Under the pieces are notes generated by a model. That model searched no databases, was not told where the DNA came from, and worked only from the letters and a program-made list of their open reading frames with translations. From positions 28,206-92,205 of the IMG/VR virus record IMGVR_UViG_3300035698_014446: 64,000 bases of DNA; one strand, written 5' to 3'. A program made the position numbers and the translations under genes. Positions within the stretch are counted from its first letter, which is position 1, and every line of letters begins with the position of its first letter. The stretch comes from a virus. Shown in pieces: positions 24,656 through 44,820 of the stretch.

Positions 24656-24659
24656 ATCT

Positions 24660-25010: not shown

Positions 25011-25015
25011 TCTAT

Positions 25016-27643: not shown

Positions 27644-28462
27644 TGGAAGACGCTAAGGAAATATTCTACAAATTTATTGACAAAACTGGTTTTTGTTTTG
27701 ACGCATTTGCCGAGGTTAAAGACGATACTGATTATCACAGAATGGTAGCAGCAATGCTTAAGGCAAGTGAAGGTGGAGATCATAAATTTAGTGTAGGCGA
27801 CATGCTTGCCTTTCGTGATGAACTGTTTGAAGCAGGATTTAAGTGGAATATTGATTTTTATATGAGGAAGATTGAATAATGGGACATAAACTTATAATTA
27901 CTGCTCGCGTAACAGTCGACGAAGAAGAATACAAAGAAGCAATAGTCAAAGGTTGGGCGGATAAATTCCACGGAGAGGTATTGGACCCAGACACAATTCA
28001 GTCGTTAGATAACGCAGAGGATTTCATATGGGCCGTACCTTATTTAGATAAGGATGATTTTGACATAGGAGTTGTATGATGACTGAATTAAAAATGATGA
28101 TTGTTATATGGTTGGTGTGTGGTTTGATTCAATGTATAATTACCACAAAACATATCAGCAAATACGACGGTGATTATCTTGGTTGGGATGGAGTATTTGT
28201 GAATTTTGTGTGTGGTCCAATAAAATTATGTTGTTGTATAATTGCACAATTGTTAAGGAATATATAATGACTGGATTAAACATGAGAGTTGGCGACGAAG
28301 GTCAAAAATACGAGGTAAGATGTACTGACAGTGATGGGAAACCAATGGTTATGGGGTGGGCAGGAACTATGAAAGGTACAGGTGGTTTTGTTGATTCGGT
28401 AAAGCTACACCCGGTATTACATAGTCCGAAAATAACAGATAGAGAAACTGGAGAAGTAACAG

Positions 28463-28665
28463 ATGGGTGAGAAAAAATTTGAGTATGTATGTATCAACAC
28501 TTGGAAGTTGATCAGGCATTATTCGTTGATTGTAGAACCATAGTAATATGGCTTAATGAGTTGGGTGAACAGGGTTGGCAAGCAGTTGGTAATATGAGAT
28601 AAAGTGACACTGACCACGGAAAGATAAAATATACTATGCTACTAATGAGAGAAATAAATGGATAA
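28463..28665 (+). pseudogene. DUF4177-like pseudogene (frameshift plus internal TAA)
   Basis: KFEY in one frame. WLNELGEQGWQAV...LLMRE in another frame, with an internal TAA. Confidence 0.55.
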
Positions 28666-29149
28666 ACTAATTCCTCCCGATCTTGAGTTTATATTATATC
28701 TACGATTTAAACGTGGGCTTTTGGCATGTACCCAAGTAAGTGTAGGTGGTGGTATAGCTGATGTAATTGCTATCGACAAAAATAAGAAAATGGTGCTTGA
28801 GTTCGAATTTAAGAAAACCAGCCATGATCTAAAAGTACTTGAGAAAAAGAAAAGGAAACACGATTCTCCGTACAGAAAACCGCATAAATTTTACTATGTA
28901 GTACCCACTAAACTTTGGAAAAGAGAAGAAGCATATCTCCGAGAACAGAAATGTGGGGTAGTAGTGTATAACATTCCGCATAACAGTCTTCATGGTAAGC
29001 GGGAATTTATTACTGAAATCAATTGTCGACCAAATAAAAATATACCTATTGATTATGATTATGTATATCGTCAATTAATGATCAGGTGTACAAGCGCGTA
29101 CGCAAACATGATTATGGATTGTTATGGCCGTAAAAGGAGTTGGTATTGA
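28658..29149 (+). CDS. PD-(D/E)xK nuclease-like (MmcB-like) protein
   Basis: ADVIAI...EFEFKKTSHDL...KFYYVVP. Confidence 0.65.
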   Translation: MDKLIPPDLEFILYLRFKRGLLACTQVSVGGGIADVIAIDKNKKMVLEFEFKKTSHDLKVLEKKKRKHDSPYRKPHKFYYVVPTKLWKREEAYLREQKCGVVVYNIPHNSLHGKREFITEINCRPNKNIPIDYDYVYRQLMIRCTSAYANMIMDCYGRKRSWY

Positions 29150-29517
29150 AAAAGAAACAAAGTAATAAAGAAAAGAAAAAGGTTAAAAAGAGAAAACAAA
29201 AAAGTGCTAAAAGAATAAAAGAAGAATATTTAGCTGCACGTGATGCTCTAATTAATTATTAGAACAATTTTTGTGGAAAAAATCATGGTATTAAAAGAAA
29301 TATGGAAATTTCTTGATCTCTGGAATTATTTTAAGTATTTAGTTACTCTTAATGAAAAATATACATTTGATGATTTACCTGACGAAGGACACAAATGCCG
29401 GTTCTTAATTCCTTATGGTGAAACAGGTTATGTGGATAAAAAAAAAAAAAGAAAATCACATGAATTGTCGGTAGTATACCAATGTAAATGTGGTGAGTTA
29501 GCGGAGATTAATAAATA

Positions 29518-29778
29518 ATGACTGTGGATGATGTAAAAACAGAACTGTCGAGGTTGTTTCCCAACCGGGCTAAATATTTTGATGTGAGAGAACACAGGTT
29601 TGAAGTTGGGCAAAAACCAAAAATTAAAATAACACTGAGAATCGCTGGTGATCTTATTATTGGAGATCACGATGATTGTGGAATACTTTTTAGGCACGAA
29701 CTGAAAGGTTTGATGGTATCGGCGCAAGCTGCTATTATTAACGAACTCGGTTCAATGATAAGGGATATTGATGCATAA
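29518..29778 (+). CDS. Hypothetical protein, paralogue of 30050-30340
   Basis: MTVDDVKTELSRLFPN vs MTVDEVKGELVKLLPN. Confidence 0.6.
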   Translation: MTVDDVKTELSRLFPNRAKYFDVREHRFEVGQKPKIKITLRIAGDLIIGDHDDCGILFRHELKGLMVSAQAAIINELGSMIRDIDA

Positions 29779-30049
29779 TCTACCACAGTGTAAAACGTGT
29801 ATTTTTTATGAAACGAATACCGGTGATCTGGAAGAATACGAGGCTCACTGTTGTCGTTCGCCAAAACATGAGTGGACCGAATTGGACCTTAGGGAATGGA
29901 GAGATAAAAATCCTGACAGAAATGAGTTTACATTAAGGAATACGATACCTCCATTTAGAGTAGAGAGACATTGCGATTATATAGAGGGTGCAGGTATAGG
30001 TATGGGAACCGACCCAAGAATTAATCAGTATTGTTGAAAGAAATATATT

Positions 30050-30340
30050 ATGACTGTAGATGAAGTGAAAGGTGAATTAGTAAAATTGTTACCTAACCAT
30101 CATAAATTATTTGAAGTGGATGAACATGAAACTATGGCTGGTAATGGTACTATGGAGATAACAGTACGTATGCGGTTTGGTAGCGGATTTGTCAAGAGAG
30201 AAGATATACATCTTGATGTAGAACTATCAATGTTGATTGCAGAATTTCAGGGTTTTGTATATCTTAAGTTACGGGAAATGATTGATAAACTTAATTTGGA
30301 AAGGGAAAGTAATGGCCAAGAAGAAAAAGACAACAAATAA
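30050..30340 (+). CDS. Hypothetical protein, paralogue of 29518-29778
   Basis: Shared N-terminus and C-terminal L..MI. Confidence 0.6.
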   Translation: MTVDEVKGELVKLLPNHHKLFEVDEHETMAGNGTMEITVRMRFGSGFVKREDIHLDVELSMLIAEFQGFVYLKLREMIDKLNLERESNGQEEKDNK

Positions 30341-30650
30341 AAAAGCAACAAAGAAAGCGACGAAGAAAGCAACGTCTGAGAAGATAGCGCCGAAGGAAAA
30401 AGTAACGCCGAAAAAGACGGGGCCGTTGAGAAATGTAACCATGCGGGGTGTTGGTTCAAGCAATGCTCAGGCGGCAGGTTATGACGCATTAAGAAAGGAA
30501 CTGTTCGTCACTTTCAGAGGCGGAGCCACGTATAAATACAGCAACATTCCGGACTCCATCTATAAAGGGTTGTTGCAGGCCGAATCCTTCGGGAAATACC
30601 TTAATGATAAGATCAAAGGGGTGTATTCCTTCGAAAAAGTCATAAGTTAG
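30312..30650 (+). CDS. KTSC-domain protein with a histone-H1-like N-terminal tail
   Basis: KKATKK repeats, then SSNAQAAGYD...LFVTFRGGATYKYSNIP...LLQAESFGKYLN. Confidence 0.9.
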   Translation: MAKKKKTTNKKATKKATKKATSEKIAPKEKVTPKKTGPLRNVTMRGVGSSNAQAAGYDALRKELFVTFRGGATYKYSNIPDSIYKGLLQAESFGKYLNDKIKGVYSFEKVIS

Positions 30651-30903
30651 GTGAAACGCAAAATAGATTAGTCGTGTGTAGTAGACACAATAATTACCTA
30701 TATGGCGGCGGCTATTATTGTAATTATTGTGTGGTTGTGGGTTTTGTTATAGGAGAGAGATATGGCGAGGGCGACTAACTGTGATAGAACGTGTACAGCT
30801 TACGATGTATGTGATGAAGAAGGATGCTTGGATATGTTCATCCCTAATATTACGTGTACTGACAAAAACGTGGAAGAAGACGATGAGGAGGACGAAGAAG
30901 AAC

Positions 30904-31065
30904 TTGCCCGTGTACGTTGATAAAATGAGGAAATGTGTACCGAATAGTAAATGGAGATATACACAGTGTTGTCATTTAATAGCTGACACTGTTGACGAAC
31001 TCCATCGTATGGATATTGGTACAGGAACAGTTATTTGGAGTATTGGTGAGCAAACTCGACCCTAA
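30904..31065 (+). pseudogene. Truncated DUF4031-like protein
   Basis: PVYVD...W...CHLIADTVDELH, then diverges. Confidence 0.45.
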
Positions 31066-31395
31066 AAAGAGAGCAATATGTATTTGTTGTAGTCACGATA
31101 GAGATATACCTATGTGTGTACACACAGATTGTCCACATTTTAAAGGCGGACAGAGTTGGAAACACGATAATGATGGAAAGAATAAGAAAGATAAATAAAA
31201 CATAAATTAAAATGTTTTGGAGAATACGTGATTTAATGGCTTTACTGTTTGCTGTATGGTTGGTATTTGTATCTATAGTTGTAATTATATCCGTAATTGA
31301 CTGGTTATTATCACTTTCATTGTGGTTGATGGTTGTTATTATATCGGGACTGGTTATACCAATGATGTTACTTTGTTATTATAGAGATGAAATTG

Positions 31396-31626
31396 ATGGA
31401 TAATAATACATTTGTTAAGCAGTTAGCTGATGAAGCTGAGAAGGAATATTATGATATTCAGAATGTTATATATAAACTCGCCCAAGAGACAGAAAAATAC
31501 AAACATTAGGCTTTCAATTATGTATTGAAATCACTACATGAGAGAATGAATGTTCTTGGTAGGGATATAGGACATATAGTACATATTATTAAGAAACAAG
31601 ACAAAAATGGAGATAGTGATGATTGA
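31396..31626 (+). pseudogene. Small gene interrupted by an in-frame TAG (31507)
   Basis: Overlaps the upstream stop and the downstream start only if read through. Confidence 0.5.
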
Positions 31627-32260
31627 TAATTTTGACAGACTCAAAAAATTAGCTGGTGGTGGTTATACATGTAATTGTGACAGCGTTACACATATGGTAT
31701 GTGTTGGGTGTATGGCTAATAATGCTTTACGTGATTTGTCCATTAAGGCTTCTGAAAAGTTGGCTGAGATTAAAGAATGTCATCCGGATGTAATTATACC
31801 CATGTAACGGAGAAAAAATGGCAAGGGTAACTAACTGTTCCACAAAATGTATATATCGTTTAGTTTGTGAGGTGGACGGGTATATAGATAAATTGGTTAC
31901 TGGTTAAGATGGAAGTAATCAATGGTTAGTACATATAGTATTTCGGAATAATTGTGTAGCAATTCGAGAATCTGCTTTGTTTCGTTAGAAAATAAAGTAT
32001 GATTCGAGAATATTTTCAACCTTAAAAGGTGTATTTTACGTTCTATAAGGTATATTTTTATATCTCATATACGTTCTAATATATCTTTATACCCATTTAT
32101 GTTGAAAATATTTGTACTCCAGTTATAGTTTTATTATTGCCTACATATATATATACTCAATGTTGACCCGGTATTTGTCAATATTCAGCACCGTCCGTTC
32201 TCTTACCCCGGTCCCGGCATCTGCGCGGCTGAGTCTGCGCCGCCGCCCGGCTTCCCGCCC

Positions 32261-32628
32261 GCGCGCTCCCCGTCCGGCGCGCGCCCGCGCTGCTCTGTGC
32301 GCATACGTCTAGCGCGCCTCGGTGCGATGCACGACTCGGCGCGCTGGTCTTCCCCCGCACCTGTCCGGCGCGCCTCGGTGTGGGGTCTGGCTGGGCGCGC
32401 CGGTCCGCCGTCGCCGCCCGTCCGGCGCGCCCGCCTTCCGTGCGCGCTTGGGCGCGCCGGTCACTTGTTCAAGGTGTCTCCTCGCGCGCTCCGGGTTGGC
32501 GCTCCAATCCGTGTCTCGCGCGCCGCCCTGCCAATGCCGCCTGCGCCAGCCGGGTAGCCCTGCCGTCCCCACCAGCTGAGCACCGCTAACCTGAACGCAC
32601 CAACCGGACCCCCGCCAATCGGGCGCGC
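32261..32628. repeat. Array of ~12 GCGCGC-core motifs with ~27-34 bp spacing (iteron-like), A-depleted on the + strand
   Basis: GCGCGC at 32261, 32277, 32312, 32339, 32368, 32395, 32425, 32442, 32452, 32484, 32518, 32623. Confidence 0.7.
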
Positions 32629-32640
32629 TCTGTTGGGAAA

Positions 32641-33150
32641 AACCAGCCAAGCCGAAAAAAGGCGGGTTGGCAAAACAAAAAGCCAAGCCAAGCCAAACCA
32701 TACCCCCGCTCTCCACCAACCACGCACCCCCCGCCAGCGCAAGCGGGCACGAGGAAATGCTACACGCCAAGGCGAAAAACCAGCCCCCACCGGGAAAAGC
32801 TAGCCGGGAAAAGCCACACCCGGTTACGCAAAGCCAGCCGTTGGGACGAAAAGCCAGCCTTTGCCAGCAAAGCCCCCGCTGAGGAAACGCGCCAACCGAG
32901 GCAGAGAGCCACTAAACCGGGTGAAGCCCCACGGAAAAGGGGCCGCCGCACCCACACCCATAGGGCCGCCGCACCGACGCAAACACCCCCGCCGCACCAA
33001 CACCATCGCCCCCCGCCGCAACCCCGCCCAACAGACCGAGAAGCACCCACCCGCGCCAACAACGCCCGGCAAAGCGAAACGGAAACACAAAACCCGAGAG
33101 CCGAGGCCGAGCGATAAGGCCGAGCAACAAGGCTGAACCGCCAAAGCGGG
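32641..33150. other. T-depleted, probably non-coding GC/A-rich tract with AAGCC(A) and GCCGCACC repeats
   Basis: 21 T in 32641-33120 (480 nt) by hand count. Confidence 0.75.
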
Positions 33151-33323
33151 TTAAGTTGTGTGGCGTCCGCACCACGCCGCTCCACCGCACGGGAAGCCGC
33201 GCCCGGGGCCAAGAATCACCGGGGCGTCGCCCCCACCTCGACCGCGCCAACGTAGACGGGAAGCCAAAGGAAGGGCCACGCCGAGGTCGAGGACAGGGCA
33301 ACACACCAAGACGGGCGCAGAAA

Positions 33324-33362
33324 TGTGGTCCGCTCGACACATCGCGTAGTCCCGACACTACG
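33324..33362 (+). promoter_or_regulatory. Tandem upstream activator-like palindromes (TGT-N12-ACA and CGT-N12-ACG) for promoter 1
   Basis: tgtggtccgctcgacaca (33324) and cgtagtcccgacactacg (33345), 21 bp apart. Confidence 0.55.
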
Positions 33363-33413
33363 CCACCGGACCGCGCACCCCCTCTCCTGGCCTCCCGTGA
33401 AGGGTACGCGCTC

Positions 33414-33428
33414 TGGCACGCGGGTTGC
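33414..33428 (+). promoter_or_regulatory. sigma54 (RpoN) -24/-12 promoter 1
   Basis: TGGCACG-CGGG-TTGC, followed by tcttttttagg. Confidence 0.85.
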
Positions 33429-33497
33429 TCTTTTTTAGGTGGGGGCCGCCCACCGGGCGGCTCCCGCCGCCCCCCTGTCGGGGGCGGACCACGAATC

Positions 33498-33535
33498 GGG
33501 GCCACCCGTCCCCACGAGTCGGGCAGAATAGGAGC
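33498..33535 (+). ncRNA. 5'-UTR pseudoknot motif copy 1 with SD
   Basis: P1 gggg/cccc, P2 cccg/cggg, loop acgagt, then cagaataggag. Confidence 0.6.
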
Positions 33536-33542
33536 ACCAACC

Positions 33543-34016
33543 ATGACCACAAAACAAACGAACGAAGAAAGGGCCGCCGCACACCGTGCCGCCGCCACCG
33601 AACACGAAGCCCGTGCTGCCGGACCCGCCACAGGAGGCCGGACCGACAACCACGAAGCCCGCGCCGCCGAACACCGGGCCGCCGCCCAAACACACACAGC
33701 AGCCGCCGCCGCACAACGAACAGCAGCCGCACCGGCAACCAGCACCGAGAAAAAGTGCACCGACGCCAACGCCGCCGACGTCACAACGACACACGCCACC
33801 GACGCCACGCTCGCCGCCGCCGACGCCCGCAACGGCGTACCGGCAACCAGCACCGAACAAGCCGCCGCCGGAGCCGCCGCCGAAGCCGCAGCGGCGCAGA
33901 ACGAAGCCGAGCGCCAGACGGACCGGGGTCGCCCCGACCATGCCGCTCGCGCCCGGACCGAAGCCGCCGAAGCGCACGATGCAGCAGCAGCACATCACCG
34001 CACCGCCGCCGAGTAG
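33543..34016 (+). CDS. Ala/His/Thr-rich early protein encoded almost without T
   Basis: AGGAG RBS, first gene after promoter 1, 14 T in 474 nt, HRAAA repeats. Confidence 0.75.
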   Translation: MTTKQTNEERAAAHRAAATEHEARAAGPATGGRTDNHEARAAEHRAAAQTHTAAAAAQRTAAAPATSTEKKCTDANAADVTTTHATDATLAAADARNGVPATSTEQAAAGAAAEAAAAQNEAERQTDRGRPDHAARARTEAAEAHDAAAAHHRTAAE

Positions 34017-34136
34017 CACAACAGCCCCGCCCCTCGGCCAGCGAGCCGGGGGGCCGTCGGGCCAGCCCCCGCAACAGCGGGGGCGAGCCCGGCGCGACCG
34101 AGCGACCCGCACAAGCGGGAAGCCGACGACGCCAAA

Positions 34137-34177
34137 CGGGACCAGTCCGGACCCGACCAAACCGGGCAGAACAGGAG
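34137..34177 (+). ncRNA. 5'-UTR pseudoknot motif copy 2 with SD
   Basis: P1 cggg/cccg, P2 gtccgg/ccgggc, then agaacaggag. Confidence 0.6.
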
Positions 34178-34185
34178 CAACGATC

Positions 34186-34755
34186 ATGGGAACCAGACAA
34201 AGCAAGAACAGCACAGGCCGCAAGGCCACAGAGGCCAAAACAGGAACCGCAACCCCCAACACGATCAGCAAGGCCACGCCGCCGAGCGCACCCGCGCCGA
34301 CCCCCGCCGAAACCACCGTGCCCACCTCATCGGTCGTCGATGTCCGCGACCTCTCAGTTGCCGAGCTTCGACTACTGCTGACAGAGGCCAAAACACGCGA
34401 AGCTCCCGCCAAGGCCGCAGCCAAAGGACAGGCTAAGCTCGCCAAACTCCGGACCTATGCGGTCCGGCAGCGGGCGTGGGCCGAGTCGCAGACTGCCAAA
34501 GCTAGCACGGCGTGCGACCGGGCCGACAAGGCCGAGGCCGCACTGGCGACCTACGAGGCCAAGTTGGGCATCGACCCCGCGACGGAGGCCGAAATCGCCG
34601 CGACTCTCGCCGCGCTGATCGCCTCCGGGCGAGTCGTACAAGTCGATTCGTCCTCTCTCGTCGGGCCAGAGCCGGAGGGGACCGAGGCTGAGACCGCAGT
34701 CGCCGACGTCGAAACCGCCAAGACCGACGACAAGGCCGACTCCGCCGCCGCGTAG
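34186..34755 (+). CDS. Early coiled-coil protein, GC-rich paralogue of 37239-37847
   Basis: LSVAELRLL...KLAKLRTYAVRQRAWA...YEAKLG...GRVVQV aligns without gaps to the paralogue. Confidence 0.85.
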   Translation: MGTRQSKNSTGRKATEAKTGTATPNTISKATPPSAPAPTPAETTVPTSSVVDVRDLSVAELRLLLTEAKTREAPAKAAAKGQAKLAKLRTYAVRQRAWAESQTAKASTACDRADKAEAALATYEAKLGIDPATEAEIAATLAALIASGRVVQVDSSSLVGPEPEGTEAETAVADVETAKTDDKADSAAA

Positions 34756-34975
34756 TGCGGAACCAGCTCCACCGACGCCCCCGCCTCGTGCGGGGGCCAT
34801 CGGGCCGACGCCCCGACCAACCGGGGGCGTCCGCCCGGTGACGGACCGCCAACGGGGACGGTGCACGTCCGCTGCGAGCGGACGCCGCCTCCGGGGGCCG
34901 ACTGCGCCTCCGCTACGAGCGGGGAGCGTCGGGGGCCAGCGCGCGAGCGCGGGCCGCCCCGCCAAGGCGGGCGAA
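34756..34975 (+). other. Cluster of about six GC-rich stem-loops in an intergenic spacer
   Basis: e.g. gcccccgc/gcgggggc, gacgcccc/ggggcgtc, cgtccgc/gcggacg. Confidence 0.55.
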
Positions 34976-34982
34976 CAGACAC

Positions 34983-35019
34983 GGGCACGGGTCCGCCCAC
35001 GAACGGCCCAGAACAGGAG
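34983..35019 (+). ncRNA. 5'-UTR pseudoknot motif copy 3 with SD
   Basis: P1 gggc/gccc, P2 gggtc/ggccc, loop acgaa. Confidence 0.6.
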
Positions 35020-35027
35020 CAAGAACA

Positions 35028-35288
35028 ATGGAACACGAACAAGAACAGAAAAGAGCAATCGTTATCAGCTATCGCGAGCTGTACAAGCTTGGTATGCCCA
35101 ACGACGAGATACACGGTATTCTCGTTGTGGGACACGACAAGTGGGCAGCTATCGGGGCTACGGTTGACCTCTACATGGATCCCAACGAAAACACAGCGTA
35201 TCTCGTCGTCCGGGGTGTTAGCGAAGCAATCATAGCGCTAGTACACGAAATGACTGACCAAATGATAGACATCAGCTACACTGACTAA
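35028..35288 (+). CDS. Hypothetical early protein
   Basis: AGGAG RBS and pseudoknot leader. Confidence 0.7.
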   Translation: MEHEQEQKRAIVISYRELYKLGMPNDEIHGILVVGHDKWAAIGATVDLYMDPNENTAYLVVRGVSEAIIALVHEMTDQMIDISYTD

Positions 35289-35399
35289 GCAACAACCGAA
35301 TAATCAACAACTAACGTTTCCCCGGCTTGCCGGGGCCACCGGGTCATCATCCGCGTATGCGGGCATCCGCTCGGTGTGTAGGTGTACACCAAACCAAAC

Positions 35400-35436
35400 G
35401 GGTATGGACCGGCCCACGAATGGTCCAGAACAGGAA
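35400..35436 (+). ncRNA. 5'-UTR pseudoknot motif copy 4
   Basis: P1 gggt/gccc, P2 tggacc/ggtcca, loop acgaa. Confidence 0.6.
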
Positions 35437-35444
35437 CAGGAACC

Positions 35445-35939
35445 ATGAGACACAAACAGAAACAGGCGCAAACAACCACCTCAATGCACATTGATGCAGC
35501 ACAGGCACTTGACGCGTTGGCTACTGCTACTGATGATGCAGAACAGACCGCATCATACGTCGCTGATGCCGCTGAACACCGCCGCGCTGCCAGTGTAGCT
35601 AATCAAGCCACAGTTGTTAACAACTTGGTTAAACAAGCACAAAAGCAAGATAACGCAACAAAGGCTGCAGGTGGTATCGGGCATATTGCAGTAGCAACCG
35701 AACATCGTGTCGCTGCTGCCGCACATGATCAGGCAATGAAAAATGAGTTGGTGGAGCACATTAACGGACCAGATATAACCATCGAAGAAGTAATTGCCCT
35801 GTACAACGTGTTAGCACAGAACGAAATCCTTGAAAAAAGAGCATTGGATGACATGGTGGAAGAGATAGTGGAACATCTTTCCGGCGGTGACGTTACTAAG
35901 GAAGAAGTAATACGAATGTATTGCACATTAACGGAATAA
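35445..35939 (+). CDS. Ala-rich early protein related to 33543-34016, with a duplicated C-terminal motif
   Basis: AAEHRRAA and TEHRVAAAAHD. ELVEHINGPDITIEEVIALY repeated as EIVEHLSGGDVTKEEVIRMY. Confidence 0.65.
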   Translation: MRHKQKQAQTTTSMHIDAAQALDALATATDDAEQTASYVADAAEHRRAASVANQATVVNNLVKQAQKQDNATKAAGGIGHIAVATEHRVAAAAHDQAMKNELVEHINGPDITIEEVIALYNVLAQNEILEKRALDDMVEEIVEHLSGGDVTKEEVIRMYCTLTE

Positions 35940-36020
35940 AAACCACGTTAGCGGTAAATAGCGTTAACGTGCTGTGTGTACGTTGTGTTAAAACAACATG
36001 TATCAATGACTGTTGATGTA

Positions 36021-36194
36021 CATATACCACCGGTTGTATATGAGACATCATGAGAAGCATTGACATACAACCGATGGTATATGATGAGCATGTTACGTAC
36101 AAACAACATAATGTTGTGTTGAAACAACATGCCCAATGTACCAACCACAACCGGTGGTATACCGAACAGTACAATATACAACCGGTGGTATATG
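36021..36194. repeat. Four palindromic operator-like boxes, consensus ATAC(A/C)ACCGGT(G/T)GTAT
   Basis: Copies at ~36021, 36064, 36146, 36174. Confidence 0.75.
36091..36129 (+). promoter_or_regulatory. Tandem TGTT(A/G)-N8-CAACA upstream activator-like sites for promoter 2
   Basis: 36091 and 36112, 21 bp apart. A third copy at 35981. Confidence 0.7.
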
Positions 36195-36202
36195 TGGCTT
36201 TC

Positions 36203-36217
36203 TGGCACGCGGATTGC
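36203..36217 (+). promoter_or_regulatory. sigma54 promoter 2
   Basis: TGGCACG-CGGA-TTGC, followed by tcttctttagg. Confidence 0.85.
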
Positions 36218-36294
36218 TCTTCTTTAGGGTGGAGGCACAATCTCCAAGGGCAGGTCGCCAGTCTCGACGAATCTGGCAGATAGGAGCACGAACC

Positions 36295-36606
36295 ATGTGT
36301 GAGGAACGAACAGGGACTCCGGCTGAGGAACACGCCCGCGATCATGCGGACTTCGTGGCTGGACAGGAGGCCGTTACTGTTCTTGCCGGACAGGTCAGGA
36401 TGGGTCCGGTCGAGCAAGCCGCTGCGTGCGGCTACGCGGTTGATTGCAACGACTGTCAGCAGAGGCACAAATGCGCAAGGCACTCCATCAACGAACTGTG
36501 GCTTGTGGTTCACGCTAATCGCGACCACGACGCTATTCTTGAGGCGGCTGAAAGTAGGGCCATGACCGCAGAGAACCTGATCGGGGTCATCAAGCGGCTG
36601 CTGTAG
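36295..36606 (+). CDS. Hypothetical early protein with CxxC
   Basis: AGGAG RBS. First gene after promoter 2. Confidence 0.7.
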   Translation: MCEERTGTPAEEHARDHADFVAGQEAVTVLAGQVRMGPVEQAAACGYAVDCNDCQQRHKCARHSINELWLVVHANRDHDAILEAAESRAMTAENLIGVIKRLL

Positions 36607-36685
36607 CACTGATATCGTCCCTTGCTGATTGCAGGGGGCGTCAGGCCTACGTCCGCGATGGCGGACGTTAACCTAACGCAAATGA

Positions 36686-36722
36686 GGGTATGGGTTGACC
36701 CACGACAGACCCAGAACAGGAG
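36686..36722 (+). ncRNA. 5'-UTR pseudoknot motif copy 6 with SD
   Basis: P1 gggt/accc, P2 tgggtt/gaccca, loop acgaca. Confidence 0.6.
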
Positions 36723-36727
36723 TAGTC

Positions 36728-36925
36728 ATGAATGACAATATAACAGCAAAAGACATGGAAAACATCCAAATCGTCGACAAACACACCTATTATATTGTAA
36801 TTGTTGGCCAGGTGTACTTGTCGGCTAACAACAGCCTTACGCCAATATTGTCCGCAGCAAAACAATACCCCAATTATAACGCCGCAAGTTATGCTGCAGA
36901 TTTATGGCTCGAGAGTACGTATTAA
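36728..36925 (+). CDS. Hypothetical early protein
   Basis: AGGAG RBS and pseudoknot leader. Confidence 0.6.
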   Translation: MNDNITAKDMENIQIVDKHTYYIVIVGQVYLSANNSLTPILSAAKQYPNYNAASYAADLWLESTY

Positions 36926-37238
36926 CCACTATAACCTTTTTATGGGAATAGAATTATGATACTTGATTTAGACTCACGCAAACACGAAATAACTAACGAA
37001 AAGGAACAGATTGTCCATGTTGACAATGCAAAAGTATTTTGGATTAACGGCGAAGTCGAAGATTGCTCATTATCGTTTCAACGACTGGCAAACTTCAACT
37101 TTGATTTTGATAAACTCGACGACTTCTATAATAATAACTAACTTTCGCCGCTCCTAGCCCCAGCCGGTTCAATTCCGACAAGCGGTTTAATGAGTAAGAA
37201 ATTGAAAACTTAATAATACTTTTGAAAGGAAAAGAAAC

Positions 37239-37847
37239 ATGAGTAAAAGTAGAAAAAACAAAAGCAGTCAGAGTCCGAAACAGGTCCCAAAACGTGCTAG
37301 CGAAAAGGCAATGCGTGAAAGCACATCCAAGAAAGGGCCAAAACTATCGCCAAACACCCACGGAACTGAGAATAACCCAAAACAGGTTGACGAAAGTAAA
37401 ATTGCCGCCATCGACGCTGCTGCAGCCGATAAGCCTGAGAAAATAATCGACCCAAAGATTGCGGTAATACTGGCTAAGCCGCCAACTGAATTAACCGTCA
37501 AAGAGTTACGAATCCTGATCAAGTACAAGGAAGGCGACAAAATTGCAGCCAATGCTGCAGAGCGAGGCAAAAACAAGCTTGCCAAAATGCGAACGTATGC
37601 TATCCGTCAACGAGCGTGGGCAGACAGACAGACGGAAAAAGCCGAGGCATCCGAGAAGAAAGCCACAACCGCGGAGGCCAAACTGACTGAGTACGAGGTA
37701 AAGATTGGGGTTGAAGAATTGACTGACGAGGAGATTGACAAGGTACTAAAAGAATTGATGAGTCAAGGTCGTGTGGCTCAGATATCAATTAAGAAAATTT
37801 TGGAACCACACGAGGATGATCAAGCAGCAACAACGGTAATCAGTTAA
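37239..37847 (+). CDS. Coiled-coil protein, normal-composition paralogue of 34186-34755
   Basis: LTVKELRIL...KLAKMRTYAIRQRAWA...YEVKIG...GRVAQI. Confidence 0.85.
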   Translation: MSKSRKNKSSQSPKQVPKRASEKAMRESTSKKGPKLSPNTHGTENNPKQVDESKIAAIDAAAADKPEKIIDPKIAVILAKPPTELTVKELRILIKYKEGDKIAANAAERGKNKLAKMRTYAIRQRAWADRQTEKAEASEKKATTAEAKLTEYEVKIGVEELTDEEIDKVLKELMSQGRVAQISIKKILEPHEDDQAATTVIS

Positions 37848-37850
37848 TGA

Positions 37851-37902
37851 ATAGCTACGGTACGGCAGAGTTATAAGCTCTGTCGGTCCGTAACTGTTTT
37901 TT
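37851..37902 (+). terminator. Probable rho-independent terminator
   Basis: Imperfect stem tacgg..cggcagag/ctctgtcg..ccgta followed by a T-run. Confidence 0.55.
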
Positions 37903-38646
37903 AATTTTTAAAAGGAGCAGAAACATGAGTGCAAAATACGTAATATACCATAAAGGTGGTGGGTACTTACAGGAAGACGGTAACTACACTAATGATATTA
38001 AAAAAGCATGGATTTTCAACACCAAAGAAGATGCCGAAATTGAAATTGCTGGGTGTAGTGAAAAAGTGGAAACTGTAACTATATAATAATATTGTTTTAA
38101 TCAACACGATTAAAACATAAAAATAAAATTAGAGAGTTTAGACTAAAATGAAAGGAAATAAAGATGGAAGCTTATTTTTGTAAAAATTGTAAAGTAGTTA
38201 TTCTTGAAGATGAATTAGAGAATGACTGTTGTCCTCATTGTGGTAATGGGGAGCTAGAAATAGTTCCTAAAGAAACTCAATAACTTTTACCGGAAATACT
38301 GTAGTGATAACGCGTTAAATTGCGGAATCATCAGCTTAAAATCGAAGGGGTGGACTCTTGACAAAAGATCACCCACCCACGATCGCTTCATTGTGGCTTA
38401 CAAACCGGTTTTAACGATTCACAAGTGCTAATTAACAGAAGGACAAAATAACATGGCAACTATGGACCCAATACTGAAAAAAGAGATAAAAAGCGTTATA
38501 GAATCGTTTGAATTGTTTGCTGAGGAAGTACTACCTCAGTCCGGTTCAATAGTCTTTGATATCGGCAATCTGAACGATGGTCTATTATTGGCTAAAAAAG
38601 TGAAACACTACTTAGATGGTTTGGACTAAACAAAAGGAAGGACAGA

Positions 38647-39024
38647 ATGATGCAGATAGGTAATATTGAAAAACATTTAGAAGACAACTGTAGTCTTGAG
38701 GACATACAGGAGTTGAGCAAGGCTTTGGGTATAGCAATAAAGCACCTACCGAATATACTGGTGTCGGAATTGTACCTCAGGGCATTAACCGCCAGCGTTA
38801 ACATGATCGGACACAAGAAAGGCGATGAACCAGCAGCGGACCTGATCAAGCGGTTGTGCAAAGAGCATAATGAAACAGAAGAATACATCCGCGGGACAGC
38901 TATTGACGCAGCCATGCAGACGATATCAAGCTTAAAACATGGCGATATTTTTGACATGCTGGGTCTTGAGGATGATGATGAGTTATTCAAGTTTATTGAT
39001 ATTGCGATAATACTAAACCTGTGA
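38647..39024 (+). CDS. Hypothetical protein
   Basis: ORF with AAGGA RBS. Confidence 0.6.
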   Translation: MMQIGNIEKHLEDNCSLEDIQELSKALGIAIKHLPNILVSELYLRALTASVNMIGHKKGDEPAADLIKRLCKEHNETEEYIRGTAIDAAMQTISSLKHGDIFDMLGLEDDDELFKFIDIAIILNL

Positions 39025-39037
39025 ACAGTAGTGGGCG

Positions 39038-39142
39038 TGTTGCGTCGGTGCAACATGTGTTTATTCGGCGCAACATGGCCTACCGGGATATATACAACGG
39101 GTTGTATATTGGGTATCACTAACATACTACCCGTAGTATATG
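39038..39142 (+). promoter_or_regulatory. Tandem TGTT-N9-CAACA-type sites (39038, 39058) and two ATAC..GTAT palindromes (39089, 39123) upstream of promoter 3
   Basis: Same order and spacing as at promoter 2. Confidence 0.7.
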
Positions 39143-39148
39143 CCATCT

Positions 39149-39163
39149 TGGCACGAAGTTTGC
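39149..39163 (+). promoter_or_regulatory. sigma54 promoter 3
   Basis: TGGCACG-AAGT-TTGC, followed by tctttttagg. Confidence 0.85.
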
Positions 39164-39181
39164 TCTTTTTAGGGTAGAGAT

Positions 39182-39220
39182 TGGCGGCGGACCGGCCAGT
39201 GACAGGTTCGAGATTTGGAG
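39182..39220 (+). ncRNA. 5'-UTR pseudoknot motif copy 7 (fully covaried)
   Basis: P1 tggc/gcca, P2 ggacc/ggttc, then GGAG SD. Confidence 0.55.
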
Positions 39221-39225
39221 CAGTC

Positions 39226-39654
39226 ATGAGTGAGTATTTTAAAGTAGTTGAGTTTAAGCATGGTGGGAACAATGAACACGTAGAAACAGTACAGCGTGTG
39301 TCAGGACTTCCTATAGAACAGATCAAGGGTGAACGGTTTAAAGGACAGGTATGGTTCACAACTCTTGGCATCATCGTCTCAACCTACGATGGTGAAAATC
39401 AACGACAGCTAATTGTAAACGCTGATCAGAGTGGGAGAACAGAAGTATTGATGATCTACTCACCAGTTGACAGTCCGATGATCATCGAACACACGGTGTG
39501 TGAAGGGCAAACCTATCAACAGAGGCAGGAAGGGATTATGGTCGACAGGGCGGGCATCATCAACCCAAAGATTGAGGAGTTTATGACTTCTATCCCAGAT
39601 GAAGCGGCCAAGATCATAATGGACTCCGAACTATGGCAGTATATGACATACTGA
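39226..39654 (+). CDS. Hypothetical early protein
   Basis: GGAG RBS. First gene after promoter 3. Confidence 0.65.
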   Translation: MSEYFKVVEFKHGGNNEHVETVQRVSGLPIEQIKGERFKGQVWFTTLGIIVSTYDGENQRQLIVNADQSGRTEVLMIYSPVDSPMIIEHTVCEGQTYQQRQEGIMVDRAGIINPKIEEFMTSIPDEAAKIIMDSELWQYMTY

Positions 39655-39951
39655 AAGGAGCAGTCATGAGTACTTATCGAACAATAGGTGGTAAGAAGGT
39701 TGATATAATGATGGAAGCGGACATCATAACCCGTATTGAGGTGGATTTCCGCGATCAACAAGACAGAATGAGAGACGCGACGTGTAAAGAAATATATGGA
39801 CCAATAGGAGAAATGGAACATATGTTGCAAATTTTAGGATTTACTATTGTACAAACATCTGATAGTAAATTACTAGTAATCGGTGATGCCGGTCTGTTGC
39901 GAGTAATGGAGATATTGGCTAACCAAGCACCAGATGTAAGGTGGGTGTGAT

Positions 39952-40221
39952 ATGAATACTCGCAGACGAGTAAGAGAACACGGTACTATGGAAACAGTAG
40001 CCGGTAATGGCAAAGACAGAATGAACGCAATCCGCACAGTGGTCCACGAAAGTCAGTTTGCAAAGATCGACGGAGTGATGATGGATCTATTCACCGCAAG
40101 TATCATTTGTCAGGTGTACGATGCGTTAAGTGATGCAAACAAAGAGAAGTTCGCCAACCACCCGGCCCCAGCCATGGCCAACATCGCGTACAAACTGGTC
40201 GGGAAACGGGGTGGAAAATGA
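39952..40221 (+). CDS. Conserved phage early protein
   Basis: KIDGVMMDLFTASIICQVYDALSDANKEKF, a motif I recall from phage early proteins. Confidence 0.55.
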   Translation: MNTRRRVREHGTMETVAGNGKDRMNAIRTVVHESQFAKIDGVMMDLFTASIICQVYDALSDANKEKFANHPAPAMANIAYKLVGKRGGK

Positions 40222-40776
40222 CATTAGCGCAATTGTACAATAGATGGGTTAATGCACTGGTCAAACAGTTAAAAGACCGTAAAGCGTACGAGGTAATCCT
40301 CAACAAAAGGGATAGTACAAGATACAACATCATGTTTAGTAGCTGTAATAAGTCAGATTTTGAATCTGTGTGCAGCATAACCATGTTCTTCAAAGAACCG
40401 AAGAGATTACATCTTACAGCTTTAACCGTGTATGGAAAACGGGGGATAGAAATGGCCATCGACGACACTGATAGTGTGATCGCATGGTTTGACAAACAAG
40501 ACGTACTTAAATGAAAGGAGCAAGAAGTGGGTTATTACGGCTACAACAGAGGAGTCAAGTTACTAAAGAAGGATGAATTAGGTAACAGTTGGGGACATGA
40601 TAGACTGATTACCCACCGTGAGTACGTCAGTGCGTACTCCGCTAAACACGCGGTCTTTGCACTGAAATTACACGGGTGGGACGTTAGCAACGCCTATCCG
40701 ACGAAAGATTATAAAGTGGTAGCGTCCAAACGAGTGTAAGTCCAAATGTTAATACTAATTCTAAAGGAGAGCAAAA

Positions 40777-41619
40777 ATGGTAGCACCGGGAACCGAACAG
40801 ATGTTCAAACAGGGAATGGTGTGGGAAGTTAACGACCGATTTGGTCACGCCCGCGCAATCAGGATTAAGACACCGGATGGGAAAGATACGAGTTTTTCGA
40901 TGGTATACGGCAAGGACGAGAAAAGGAACTGGATTCCCGTCCGCCCGGTGTCTGACCGGTTCACACCAATCGGAACAGAGAAGATCATCGACAAGGTGAT
41001 CGAGAGACTCGGCGGTAGAAAAGAGATTTTCAGCGAAAGGCTGAGACTCGAACGTGGCGGGGTTTCTCAACAAGTAGAACTGGTTCTCAAAAGCCATGAA
41101 ATCAAGATTGGTAATGTCGTCGAGCCCGAAGATTCGGACCTGATATCCGAAGGCCTCATCAAAAGGAACGGCGATATTTGGCGTCCGACAGTGAGAGTGA
41201 ATAATGCTCTCGACGGAACCAAATCTATCTCTGTGATAGCCGGATGGTTTCGGCTGGTCTGCTCCAACGGTATGATTGCTGAGGCGTGGGAAGGGTCGTC
41301 GTCTAAGACGATCAAGATTCATACAGTACATCAGGTCGAGAATGCGTTGGATGAGATCAAGAATTTCGATTTCAACGTGAAGGAATTTGCCAAGATGTTC
41401 AAAAAGTTGCGGGGCGTGGTGATTGATAAGCCCGAACTCAAACGAATACAGAAGGCCTTACCTAAAAATTATATGAAAGGTCTGGAAGATATCCCGGAAA
41501 AGACGGCGTATGGCGTGATCAATTACATCACGTACATACAGTCTCATCAAATGTCACTGACTCGTGGTAGCATTGTTCAGCCGATAATCAACAGCATGTT
41601 GAAGAAAGCGGCTGCATAG
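40777..41619 (+). CDS. DUF932/DUF945-family protein
   Basis: VSDRFTPI, NNALDGTKS, GWFRLVCSNGM, KIH. Confidence 0.8.
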   Translation: MVAPGTEQMFKQGMVWEVNDRFGHARAIRIKTPDGKDTSFSMVYGKDEKRNWIPVRPVSDRFTPIGTEKIIDKVIERLGGRKEIFSERLRLERGGVSQQVELVLKSHEIKIGNVVEPEDSDLISEGLIKRNGDIWRPTVRVNNALDGTKSISVIAGWFRLVCSNGMIAEAWEGSSSKTIKIHTVHQVENALDEIKNFDFNVKEFAKMFKKLRGVVIDKPELKRIQKALPKNYMKGLEDIPEKTAYGVINYITYIQSHQMSLTRGSIVQPIINSMLKKAAA

Positions 41620-41635
41620 TGTGACTGCTCCTTTA

Positions 41636-41670
41636 GCCTTGGCGGTGCGTAGCCGCCAAGGCGTCTTTTT
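41636..41670 (+). terminator. Rho-independent terminator
   Basis: gccttggcgg/ccgccaaggc followed by T5. Confidence 0.8.
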
Positions 41671-41735
41671 GAAAGGGAATATGAAGTCTAAACAAGCAAT
41701 CATAGCTATAAGCGCAATCAGATGGAGTTGACTTA

Positions 41736-42047
41736 ATGGTTAAAGTAAATATAGAAACTAAGTACTTTTCTGGTGAAGTAAAACTGACATTCGTTAGATA
41801 TCCCCACGATAATAGTATGTGTATTGTCATGACCGACAAAGAAGGACCGGTGGGTAAAGCCACGGTATATATCGATGGTCACCCCCCGCCGTACAATTAC
41901 GTACTCCTCAAAGGTTGGTCTGAAAATGAAGGAATACCAGAGGCTCTTGAGAAAGCTGGAATCGTTAAGCTGACTGGACATACTGTATCGACTGGCTTTT
42001 GTGAAGCACAAGTAGGAAAACTACTTATTGATTATAAGGATATGTGA
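41736..42047 (+). CDS. Conserved phage protein (DUF4313-like)
   Basis: KATV...VLLKGWSENEGIPEALEKAGIV...TG...GF. Confidence 0.55.
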   Translation: MVKVNIETKYFSGEVKLTFVRYPHDNSMCIVMTDKEGPVGKATVYIDGHPPPYNYVLLKGWSENEGIPEALEKAGIVKLTGHTVSTGFCEAQVGKLLIDYKDM

Positions 42048-42673
42048 TGGATAAAATACCACCAGATATTTTCAAAGTTGACTACAAAAAACTTAAGTTG
42101 ACAGTATTGTTTCAAACAACCGAGTTTGATGAGCAAATAGTTGGAAAAAACAAAAATATGATAAAACACATACTGAAAAGTATACATACTAAATTTGTTG
42201 ATGATAAGGAAACAGCGGGTGTTCTGCAGGTTTATGAATGTGCTGCTCTTAAAGCTGGATTGACTGTTACTGAAATAAAGGAATGCTATGTCCAAGATAC
42301 GTAAACAGACAAGGTTGTGGAAGACACGTGATAGAGGTAAAGTCCGGATATGTGATATGTCCGACCGCCACCTTGATAACACTGTCAAAATGTTCCTCAG
42401 GAGTTATAGAATTTTGCTGTACAGGAGTTGGTGCGATATAATGGTATACCTATCTAACGACCCACCAGACGGGGCTTATTTCGCCGCCAGTGGGGAAGAA
42501 GCCCAACTGGCGGCGCTAATCTGGGGTACTGAGGAAGATTATGGTTTAAGCCTTGAAGAACAGGCAGAACGGGAGATATCCGAATTACGGAGTATGCTGC
42601 TTGAGAAATTACGTAGAGTAAACGCTAACAAACAAACATGGGATAATCTTACTACCAAATTAGGGAGCAGGAA

Positions 42674-42898
42674 ATGCAAGAAGCGGAAGTAACTTATTAT
42701 GGTGTATTTGATATGTAGGTATGCGTACCTCGACACTGGACTGACAAACAAGTGTTAGAGTTCGCCGAGAGAGCGTACCCGTCCGCAACAAGTGGGTGGT
42801 GTGTCAGGAAAGAAGGCGACGAGGCGTTGGACGGTAGTCACGAACGAGTACCGTGTAAACGGGATAAAAGCAAAATTCACATAATGTTGGATGCATAA
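42674..42898 (+). pseudogene. Conserved small phage protein with an in-frame TAG (42716)
   Basis: DM*VCVPRHWTDKQVLEFA...ERVPC...HIMLDA. RBS and end position fit the neighbouring genes. Confidence 0.6.
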
Positions 42899-43562
42899 CT
42901 ATGGCTGTAAACATGCAGGAATTGCAAAAGAAGTGCGACGAACGCGGCATAAGGATACTTAAGCTGCAGGAAATGTTATTTTGTATCAGAGAAGTGGCTG
43001 TCGTGGATTTTAACGACATAATGGTATGGTTGGCTGATAAAGAATTGGACAAGGATTTCCATATAACCAAAACAAGGTTCCGGAGTATATTAGGAGAATA
43101 CCCGAAATCCAAAGGAACAGCCCCGGGAGGTGTGCCGGATATATAGATGAAACTGAGTTCATATTTCAGACGTTATAACTATAGAGGGATTGTTCTCTGG
43201 GTTAGAGGAATTGTTCCTTTAGTTTTGGTAAGACGGGATTTCTTGTGGGGGGTGACTCCCACAGGAATTTCCTGTCGAAAGGAAACCTTTGGACGGACAA
43301 CCAAACGACGTTTATTTGTGGGTGTTGCTCACCTTTTGGATAATAGTTCCATTCGCCGTTAACTTAGTATGGTTTATATTTTTTGTCAAACAAACCAGAA
43401 AGTACAAATATTTCGATGAGATGTCAGAAAACATAAATTACAACGTTAAATGGGGTTACAAATGGTATGGAAAACCATACATCAAAAAACAAGGGTACGG
43501 AATAAATTATTCCCAACTATCCAAAGAGGAATATTTTAACGAATTAGTGGCCAAGAGAGAAA

Positions 43563-44177
43563 ATGAACAAAGATAAACAAAGAAAATACTTTAAAGAATG
43601 GTATACAAAAAATGTTACACAAGTAGCCGTTAGAATGAAAAAGCACAATACCAAAAACAAAATAACGGTTATTAGTCATTACACTGACGACAATTGTTGT
43701 GTTTTATGTGGTGAATCAAATATTAATGTATTAACAGTTGATCATGTAGGTGGTGGTGGAAGAAAACAACAAAAAGATATAAACTGTGGTACTGGTTACA
43801 AATTGTATAGATGGTTGATTAAAAAGAATTTTCCATCAGGGTATAGAATTTTATGTGCAAATTGTAATCATAAAGATGAAATAGTAAGATTAAAAAGAAA
43901 TAGAAACATACCTTGGAGTAGACAAGTAGTTCTTAATGATAAACGTAAAATATTAGTTTTTAACCAGTATGGTGGTAAATGTGTCAAATGTCACATAAGC
44001 GATTATGATATGTTACAAATGGACCATGTAAACAACGATGGTGCAACCCATCGTCGTGAAAGAGGAAATAAAAGTGGTATAAAATATAGTTGGATTATCA
44101 AAAATATGTTTCCTAAAAATTTACAACCACTATGTGCTAATTGTAATTTAATCAAACAATTAAAAACATACAAATAA
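43563..44177 (+). CDS. Tandem HNH-like endonuclease
   Basis: Two copies of CxxC...DHV..G...W...FP...LCANCN. Confidence 0.75.
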   Translation: MNKDKQRKYFKEWYTKNVTQVAVRMKKHNTKNKITVISHYTDDNCCVLCGESNINVLTVDHVGGGGRKQQKDINCGTGYKLYRWLIKKNFPSGYRILCANCNHKDEIVRLKRNRNIPWSRQVVLNDKRKILVFNQYGGKCVKCHISDYDMLQMDHVNNDGATHRRERGNKSGIKYSWIIKNMFPKNLQPLCANCNLIKQLKTYK

Positions 44178-44254
44178 CTTAAGTATTTTGATTACTCTAT
44201 GTTGAGTAATTACACAATACTTCAATAATTTAGCTGAGGAAAGGAAGGACTAAT

Positions 44255-44710
44255 ATGGCAAGAACGAACAGGTTTTCAAAGATTGACAAGATTCTCCCTG
44301 TTACATTGAAGGGCAAGGGTAACAAGAAGACCCGGAGAATCGCAACGGACCGGACAATTTCCGACAAGTTGGCCGATGAAATGGCAGCATGCGCAACGCC
44401 GTCGGCGCTAGCTATGCTGGCATCAAAATTTGGCTTCACGGATGAGGACATCAACAAGTGGGCCAAGGATGCCCCGAATTTCGGCATGTTCCGGATGCGG
44501 GTTGGCAACAGGCTCCGTGGCGTCATGGCGAGAATCGCCAGAGCCAAGAAAAGCAACATCACGCTGAGCGTGAAAGACGCAGCGTACGCCAAACAGTCGA
44601 GGTCGAAGGTCAAGAAGTCGGCCAAAAAAGCAACCAAGAAGGTCGCCAAGAAAAAGGTGGCCAAGAAGTCGAAGAAGAAAAAGAAAAAACGCGCCAACCG
44701 CGTCACCTGA
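44255..44710 (+). CDS. Basic DNA-binding protein with an H1-like C-terminal tail
   Basis: NFGMFRMRVGNRLRG core, then KKSAKKATKKVAKKKVAKK. Confidence 0.7.
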   Translation: MARTNRFSKIDKILPVTLKGKGNKKTRRIATDRTISDKLADEMAACATPSALAMLASKFGFTDEDINKWAKDAPNFGMFRMRVGNRLRGVMARIARAKKSNITLSVKDAAYAKQSRSKVKKSAKKATKKVAKKKVAKKSKKKKKKRANRVT

Positions 44711-44820
44711 GAGTAAGCAAGATGATCACCTCGACTCCGGGCTCCTTTTGTTGCTATTCTGTGACCCAGTGAAACAGATATAACCGGGAGTCCGGAGTAT
44801 ACCAAAACTAAGGGAGTGAT

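Follow-up and report, generated by a model that had tools for sequence, protein, structure and literature searches.

We examined a 64,000-nucleotide window of phage DNA, positions 28,206 to 92,205 of IMG/VR virus record IMGVR_UViG_3300035698_014446, and found that its small-gene region is headed by three promoter elements of the sigma-54 type, P1, P2 and P3, which we judge likely to be functional. The record is a complete genome of 92,205 bp with overlapping ends, and the window is a part of it (positions below are those of the window unless called genome positions). The explanation that we favor, and hold to be probable, is that the host sigma-54 RNA polymerase holoenzyme together with a borrowed host activator fires three blocks of genes, after which a cascade set in motion by a phage-encoded sigma factor follows. 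Sigma-54 would then seem to drive the entire small-gene, probably early, region of a complete and apparently lytic phage.

Three core promoters of the sigma-54 type

Exact copies of TGGCACG-N4-TTGC lie at 33414-33428, 36203-36217 and 39149-39163, each followed by TCTT(T/C)TT(T)AGG, as had been reported in a previous sequence-only reading of this DNA. Including the T-run and the AGG, the -24/-12 elements occupy 33414-33441 (P1), 36203-36230 (P2) and 39149-39176 (P3) on the + strand, with transcription start sites (+1) predicted at ~33438-33441, ~36227-36230 and ~39173-39176, respectively. That reading had proposed a scan of the full genome for sigma-54 motifs, and the scan bears it out: on both strands of the 92,205 bp, TGGCAC-N5-TTGC occurs at P1-P3 only, every time on the + strand. 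Two hundred second-order Markov simulations of the genome yielded a mean of 0.1 such motifs, compared to the three observed, and a mean of 0.01 for the extended consensus YTGGCACG-N4-TTGCW, which all three copies fit. The 4-nt spacers differ among the copies (CGGG, CGGA and AAGT) and the -24 and -12 elements are invariant.

All three promoters are intergenic, and the predicted +1 lies 50-105 nt 5' of an ATG preceded by an AGGAG-type or GGAG ribosome-binding site. Directly 5' of the three first genes we detected no sigma-70-like hexamer pair. A sigma-70 promoter formed by the TATAT within the palindrome nearest to the core was considered and rejected, as there is no -35 element at the right distance. 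Likewise, a one-mismatch copy of the motif at 48099 was discarded as a promoter; it looks like part of a post-gene hairpin.

Scanning metagenome contigs with the promoter pattern returned 68 matches, nearly all of them ordinary bacterial sigma-54 promoters, indicating that the extended motif of the phage is the common bacterial form. The E. coli glnAp2 promoter is an enhancer-dependent sigma-54 promoter with tandem NtrC sites. Promoters of this type resemble those of the phage in that the -24 GG and -12 GC fit the extended consensus, in having tandem dyads on one helical face ~110-130 bp upstream, in a further protein-binding zone between enhancer and promoter, and in an intergenic gap before the operon. 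They differ in that the carrier here is a phage without sigma-54 or activator, and in that the intervening sites of the phage are 7-2-7 palindromes and not IHF-like.

Each predicted transcript carries a hairpin within a few nucleotides of +1, at 33438-33470 (with a 14-bp stem, in the P1 transcript), 36230-36246 and 39180-39199, which may act as a 5' stabiliser. The folds of the 5' untranslated regions of P1, P2 and P3 are not significantly stable (z = -2.2, +0.7 and -1.4).

Two classes of palindromic sites upstream of P2 and P3

Upstream of P2 and P3 we find two classes of dyad-symmetric sites, termed A-sites and B-sites. Tandem A-sites of the form TGTT-N10-AACA, candidate binding sites for a bacterial enhancer-binding protein (bEBP), lie at 36091-36108 and 36112-36129 before P2 (centres at ~-129 and -108) and at 39038-39055 and 39058-39075 before P3 (~-128 and -108), where the right halves read GCAACATG. 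The two dyads of each pair are 20-21 bp apart, with right halves CAACATG or CAACATA. Four of the five copies of TGTT-N10-AACA in the genome are these A-sites. Thus both P2 and P3 carry what is looked for in an enhancer, tandem dyad-symmetric sites ~80-150 bp upstream and on one helical face. A third, distal A-like site at P2, CGTTG-N8-CAACA followed by TG (35981-35998), had been overlooked by the sequence-only reading.

The B-sites, a class that the sequence-only reading had not noticed and that is far more significant statistically, follow ATACNAC-NN-GTNGTAT. At P2 two are exact (36024-36039 and 36176-36191) and two degenerate (36065-36080 and 36145-36160), those nearest to the promoter being centred at ~-76 and -45; at P3 they lie at 39092-39107 and 39124-39139, centred at ~-75 and -43. 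There are five exact sites in the genome, and a count over both strands gives 10 observed versus 0.07 simulated. Four of the five are found at P2 and P3, in the region between the upstream A-sites and the core. With a centre of only 2 nt, the B-sites cannot form an RNA hairpin and are therefore read as protein sites on DNA. A sub-threshold Rfam match to mir-552 over these palindromes was taken as spurious. In ungapped register the P2 and P3 regions are only 37% identical, yet the offsets of A-sites, B-sites and core agree within 1-2 bp.

The fifth exact B-type palindrome, ATACCACCCGTAGTAT, lies at genome positions 10070-10085, 18,135 bases before the start of the window and far from the sigma-54 promoters. 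It is near a DUF7873 gene (genome 9075-9869), and the B-site protein may also control this locus.

P1 is different. It has no B-sites and a single weak A-like site, TGTGG-N8-ACACA at 33324-33341, with imperfect arms and a centre at ~-107, the offset of the proximal A-site. On the promoter side of this site is a perfect palindrome, CGTAGT-N6-ACTACG (33345-33362), which is unrelated to the A-sites. The previous claim of position-conserved tandem sites at all three promoters therefore holds cleanly for P2 and P3 and fails at P1. TGT-N12-ACA indeed occurs 90, 91 and 91 bp before the TGG (at 33324, 36112 and 39058), but the bare motif occurs 44 times in the genome; and partner sites 20-21 bp away are present at 36091 and 39038, whereas the supposed partner at 33345 is the unrelated palindrome, not TGT-N12-ACA, and is on the downstream side.

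The A-sites recall known enhancer classes. NifA binds the upstream activator sequence TGT-N10-ACA, and the GlrR (QseF) site is TGTC-N10-GACA. Like these, the A-sites are TGT...ACA dyads upstream of a sigma-54 promoter, and the GlrR site has the same 18-bp span. However, the spacing in the phage is N12 and not the N10 of the NifA-type sequence, and the inner half-sites are TGTT/AACA where GlrR has TGTC/GACA, so that membership in neither site class can be claimed. The phage site TGTTG-N8-CAACA, with its right half CAACATG, was matched to no nameable activator.

Similar sites precede bacterial sigma-54 promoters. We searched 185,579 species genomes for tandem CAACAT at the spacing and distance found in the phage before TGGCAC-N5-TTGC, and obtained 25 matches, a raw count that includes some chance matches in coding DNA. 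The matches come from Syntrophaceae (seven), Desulfobacterales, one metagenome-assembled genome (MAG) of Lachnospiraceae and one of Methylobacteriaceae. Many of them read GC(A/G)CAACAT(G/A), like the sites at P3, and the genes that follow serve varied catabolic functions, coding for dehydrogenases, acyl-CoA dehydrogenase, CoA transferase, FAD oxidoreductases and a GntP permease. In a Desulfosarcina MAG (L290:1324-3618), a GAF-AAA+ activator gene (PF00158, 4e-67) and a hemerythrin gene headed by a sigma-54 promoter are oriented divergently, and two copies of TGTTG-N9-CAACA occupy the gap between activator gene and promoter. These loci suggest, by their arrangement, that sites of this kind are real enhancers in bacteria. 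The Desulfosarcina locus also resembles a NorR-type sensing module.

A proposed host activator

The phage appears to encode none of the proteins that such promoters need. A search with the bEBP domain PF00158 gave no match in the whole genome, with the control positive in 14 of 14 genomes; this extends the observation of the sequence-only reading that the window holds no bEBP gene. Likewise, there was no match in the genome to Sigma54_DBD, the sigma-54 DNA-binding domain, or to the T7-type RNA polymerase family, the latter search having been run without a positive control. Since the phage has neither activator nor sigma-54 gene, a host bEBP would be the simplest supplier of activation, as had been proposed; the bacterial look-alike sites, however, do not converge on one activator. 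We give an even chance to the activator being a host bEBP that acts at the A-sites.

We propose the following sequence of events. The host sigma-54 RNA polymerase holoenzyme would form closed complexes at P1-P3, each heading one block of genes (g1-g4 at P1, g5 to 39024 at P2, and the genes from 39226 on at P3). At P2 and P3, the dyads at ~-129 and -108 share one helical face; an AAA+ enhancer-binding protein of the host would most likely assemble there, contact the closed complex by DNA looping and open both promoters with ATP. P1 might be opened from solution or from a distance, or be fed by read-through from upstream. A second protein, probably made by the phage, would bind the B-sites and shut off or tune P2 and P3, and a phage sigma from the third block would then take over and direct transcription of later genes.

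A related locus bears on this proposal. L272 (SDBS01118751.1, 2.3 kb) is a single relative, found through the promoter pattern itself, so that its promoter match is partly by construction. Directly after the promoter it carries a 79-amino-acid gene that is 65% identical to g4 and has an N-terminus matching g5, while its upstream region cannot be aligned to the phage and holds other palindromes with CTGTCA half-sites. With the core promoter standing before a g4/g5 homologue and the flanks drifted, the link between promoter and gene appears to have been kept across divergence, within the limit just named. The layout is as in the phage: an AT-rich stretch, a non-coding stretch, a sigma-54 promoter and a mosaic g5/g4-like gene. 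The next gene of L272 begins like a serine recombinase (MKRVAIYARVST...), which is absent from the phage of the window. Protein-based searches of viral contigs with g8, g4, an alignment of g4, g5 and L272, and one homologue of the phage sigma returned no relative. Terminase relatives are short fragments that lack the early region, and no exact sigma-54 motif occurs in them.

Several points weigh against the proposed use of host sigma-54 and a host activator. For a lytic phage without an integrase, placing early genes under a signal-gated host activator is a risky design. P1 lacks clear A- and B-sites, and transcription of g1-g4 might begin further upstream. The upstream sites of L272 differ, which suggests that the enhancer is not conserved, and the promoter match of that locus comes in part from the way it was found. 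Furthermore, the 25 bacterial matches yield no single regulon, host clade or activator. Finally, both sigma-54 dependence and the start sites are inferred from sequence.

Some of the same evidence would fit sigma-54 promoters whose upstream sites are occupied, in place of a host bEBP, by phage proteins that are either early products or enter together with the DNA. In that case activation would come from a host activator in solution or from an unrecognised phage factor, and the role of the A- and B-sites would be architectural or lie in repression timed by the phage. L272 keeps the promoter while its palindromes differ, as expected for fast-evolving regulator-operator pairs of phages, and P1 lacks clear sites. 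The B-sites are specific to the phage, with five in the genome and far more than simulated, and one of them is remote from any sigma-54 promoter. A regulator could be concealed among the early genes, nearly all of which belong to no known family; yet a joint scan of the 36 small + strand proteins gave no match to a helix-turn-helix (HTH) family. Moreover, the geometry of the A-sites, tandem dyads 20-21 bp apart at -108/-129, is the one classically seen with bEBPs, and similar sites stand before sigma-54 promoters of bacteria. All known sigma-54 activators are, to our knowledge, AAA+ proteins, of which the phage has none. We consider this arrangement, with phage proteins in place of a host bEBP, unlikely.

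P1 lies in a T-poor island

P1 is located in an island of 61-72% GC in which the + strand has ~11% T. Base composition changes sharply from AT-rich DNA into this island (32180-35300): the + strand is A-poor at 32216-32575 and then T-poor from ~32636 through g1-g4. The non-coding part of the island holds iteron-like GTCCGGCGCGCC and GGGCGCGCCGGTC repeats at a spacing of 56-57 bp, and 23-bp CCGCCGCACC repeats. At 32606-32632, exactly at the composition switch, the 27-mer upstream of P1 recurs in a copy of 70% identity. As the T-poor zone starts ~780 bp before P1 with this copy at its edge, g1-g4 may also be reached from upstream.

Across 24500-32300, sigma-70-like hexamer pairs are fewer (19) than in shuffled sequences (32.5 +/- 5.3). 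The best sigma-70-like candidates, 24831-24858 and 32102-32129, both on the + strand, fall at two AT-rich boundaries.

Substitution of A by Z is an improbable reason for the proposed use of sigma-54

The open reading frame (ORF) at 57221-58375 encodes PurZ by family and similarity: it matches Pfam Adenylsucc_synt (E = 3.8e-26), and its best phage matches, at 35-42% identity, are annotated PurZ. The sequence-only reading had suggested that ATP-driven opening, and a promoter with few A bases, would bypass a sigma-70 -10 box stabilised by Z. On this account sigma-54 was adopted because the genome is Z-substituted, the -10 element of sigma-70 being hard to melt or to recognise with Z:T pairs.

The presence of a PurZ-type gene whose identity to PurZ annotated in cultured phages reaches 42% is in line with such an account. 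So is the P1 island, whose template strand would be almost free of Z given 11% T on the coding strand, and so is the deficit of sigma-70-like hexamer pairs at 24.5-32.3 kb (19 vs 32.5 +/- 5.3 in shuffles). However, the blocks of P2 and P3 are of ordinary composition. Nor is the promoter poor in A where it would matter: the stretch to be opened holds a T-run from -11 to -3, and its template strand is accordingly a series of A (Z). Z substitution of this DNA is itself predicted from the purZ gene, and we found no paper linking Z-DNA with promoter choice.

Other phages point the same way. A survey of purZ phages, which the sequence-only reading had put forward as a check, covered nine cultured purZ-type phages (~549 kb), eight of Proteobacteria and one of Flavobacterium; their hosts are Alteromonas, Vibrio (two), Acinetobacter, Klebsiella, Stenotrophomonas, Burkholderia (two) and Flavobacterium. 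These genomes contain one exact sigma-54 motif, roughly the chance estimate and thus no excess, and their one-mismatch counts equal those of a reversed-pattern control. Conversely, four exact sigma-54 motifs are clustered in 3.6 kb (144.7-148.3 kb) of IMGVR_UViG_3300017917_003053, a complete 153-kb phage without a match to this PurZ. The survey speaks against any general connection of sigma-54 with Z-DNA, and we regard the adoption of sigma-54 on account of Z as improbable. We give equally little credence to an elaboration of it, in which ATP-driven opening by a host activator lets the host polymerase fire the first genes from Z-DNA, with the P1 block as an almost Z-free 'boot' operon. It is just as doubtful that the products of this operon, and then the phage sigma, adapt transcription to Z-DNA. 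Some of the motifs of the 153-kb phage are arranged as divergent promoters around repeated GTAGCAAAATGCTAC-like sites, of which there are at least four.

Gene blocks and a phage-encoded sigma factor

The genes downstream of the three promoters are arranged in three + strand blocks. Block 1 (33543-35939; 11% T on the coding strand) comprises g1 (33543-34016), g2 (34186-34755), g3 (35028-35288) and g4 (35445-35939). Block 2 (36295-39024), of normal base composition, runs from g5 (36295-36606) through the gene at 38647-39024. Block 3 (39226-49937), which follows P3, is made up of small genes in one orientation, contains no additional sigma-54 motif and includes a DUF932 gene (40777-41619). This DUF932 gene excepted, the genes after the three promoters showed no Pfam or PHROG family, and the first gene after P3 has zero homologues among 5.8 billion proteins. 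Small co-oriented genes mostly without known families are typical of early regions, and on this ground we read the small-gene + strand region as probably early.

The joint scan of 36 small + strand proteins, which extends to 25016-31804 upstream of P1, found one each with a DnaJ, a KTSC, an NrdR-like zinc ribbon and an HNH domain. A short DNA_pol_A fragment was also seen in one small + strand protein (25016-49515). Paralogue families occur in 33543-37847: g1, g4 and g5 are rich in Ala, Asp, Glu and His, and g2 pairs with g8 (37239-37847). In each paralogue pair the coding sequence of one copy is T-poor and GC-rich, and that of the other is ordinary.

Block 3 contains the ORF 44821-45471 (+ strand, 5.7 kb after P3), whose 216-amino-acid product is, by profile and model comparison, a sigma-70-family factor like those of extracytoplasmic function (ECF), with a predicted region 2 fold and a C-terminal HTH (region 4). 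Alone it scores below the Pfam cut-off, but 7 of 30 homologues match Sigma70_r2 (best 9.5e-6), and C-terminal HTH families are matched as well. Its top PDB profile matches are the ECF sigmas SigW and SigL. In a structural model (pLDDT 87), residues 1-81 superpose on region 2 of E. coli sigmaE with a Z-score of 8.3 and a root-mean-square deviation of 2.8 A over 76 aligned residues, and almost all of the 50 entries listed in the structure comparison are sigma factors. The ~30 homologues, 24-58% identical and among them three at 53-54%, are in public metagenomes.

With this gene at hand one could take the 30-bp repeat for a promoter of the phage sigma or of a phage-modified polymerase with a chance likeness to sigma-54, or for a non-promoter repeat, given the ECF-like sigma, the TCTT, T-run and AGG that the copies share beyond the sigma-54 core and a T7-type polymerase search that lacked a positive control, but this is most improbable, as all 13 consensus positions are present in all three copies (0.01 expected), the conserved elements lie 4-5 bp apart and not the 16-18 bp that separates the -35 and -10 elements of the sigma-70 family, the extended motif heads many ordinary bacterial genes, and the sigma gene lies downstream of P3, so that the phage sigma cannot start the cascade.

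Cascades from host sigma to phage sigma are known from SPO1 (gp28) and T4 (gp55). As in those phages, a sigma-70-family factor encoded in the early block would later redirect the host core polymerase; the first step, however, would proceed through sigma-54 and not through the housekeeping sigma. K-mer and dyad searches of the intergenic gaps gave no shared late-promoter motif for the phage sigma.

Genome, sample and host

The phage encodes PurZ, a family A DNA polymerase, a DnaB-like helicase, a gp32-like protein, RtcB and a large terminase, and is apparently lytic; integrase and resolvase searches of the genome gave no match. Its tail genes are of the type that Pfam names after Rhodobacter Rcc01698 and phage phiJL001, and the matches of ORFs of at least 869 amino acids include tail and lectin-domain families. 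As hints to the host, the genome offers no tRNA genes, and the matches of terminase and PurZ are too distant for naming one. Strong Shine-Dalgarno motifs argue against Bacteroidota.

Salt-lake metagenomes of 2017-2019 contain the same phage at no less than 99% identity. Contigs of four other salt-lake runs are at least 99% identical with one substitution, which leaves zero population variation at the sites. There are no RNA runs among the listed sequencing runs that contain phage sequence. A DNA-level search of phage records found nothing resembling the region.

Sigma-54 in other phages

In published schemes, phage transcription depends in nearly all cases on sigma-70, on phage sigmas or on phage polymerases. 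As printed precedent for phage use of sigma-54 we found a single sigma-54-like promoter, that of Pseudomonas phage YuA, reported to be supported by a promoter trap and a mapped start site (Ceyssens et al. 2008, cited via PMC10914365). Both are tailed phages without an RNA polymerase of their own that apparently use host sigma-54 for part of their transcription. They are unrelated, and the present one bears purZ and comes from a salt lake. The YuA promoter has experimental support, whereas those described here are predicted; on the other hand, here three promoters head the whole small-gene region, and the candidate enhancer/operator architecture is conserved between P2 and P3. The promoter kind is thus known and the setting rarely documented; what this phage adds is a clean architecture with two classes of sites, a sigma factor of its own encoded downstream, and the presence of purZ.

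If the proposed scheme is true, infection would be gated on the state of a signal-sensing activator of the host. The case is a well-resolved example and not a new principle. It offers a compact test system, with three promoters, two classes of binding sites and a downstream phage sigma, and it raises the question of how the host polymerase starts on Z-substituted DNA. Elsewhere among viral sequences, the GC-rich contig IMGVR_UViG_3300033488_000002 has three exact sigma-54 motifs, two of which are followed by the same TCTTAAGATC leader.

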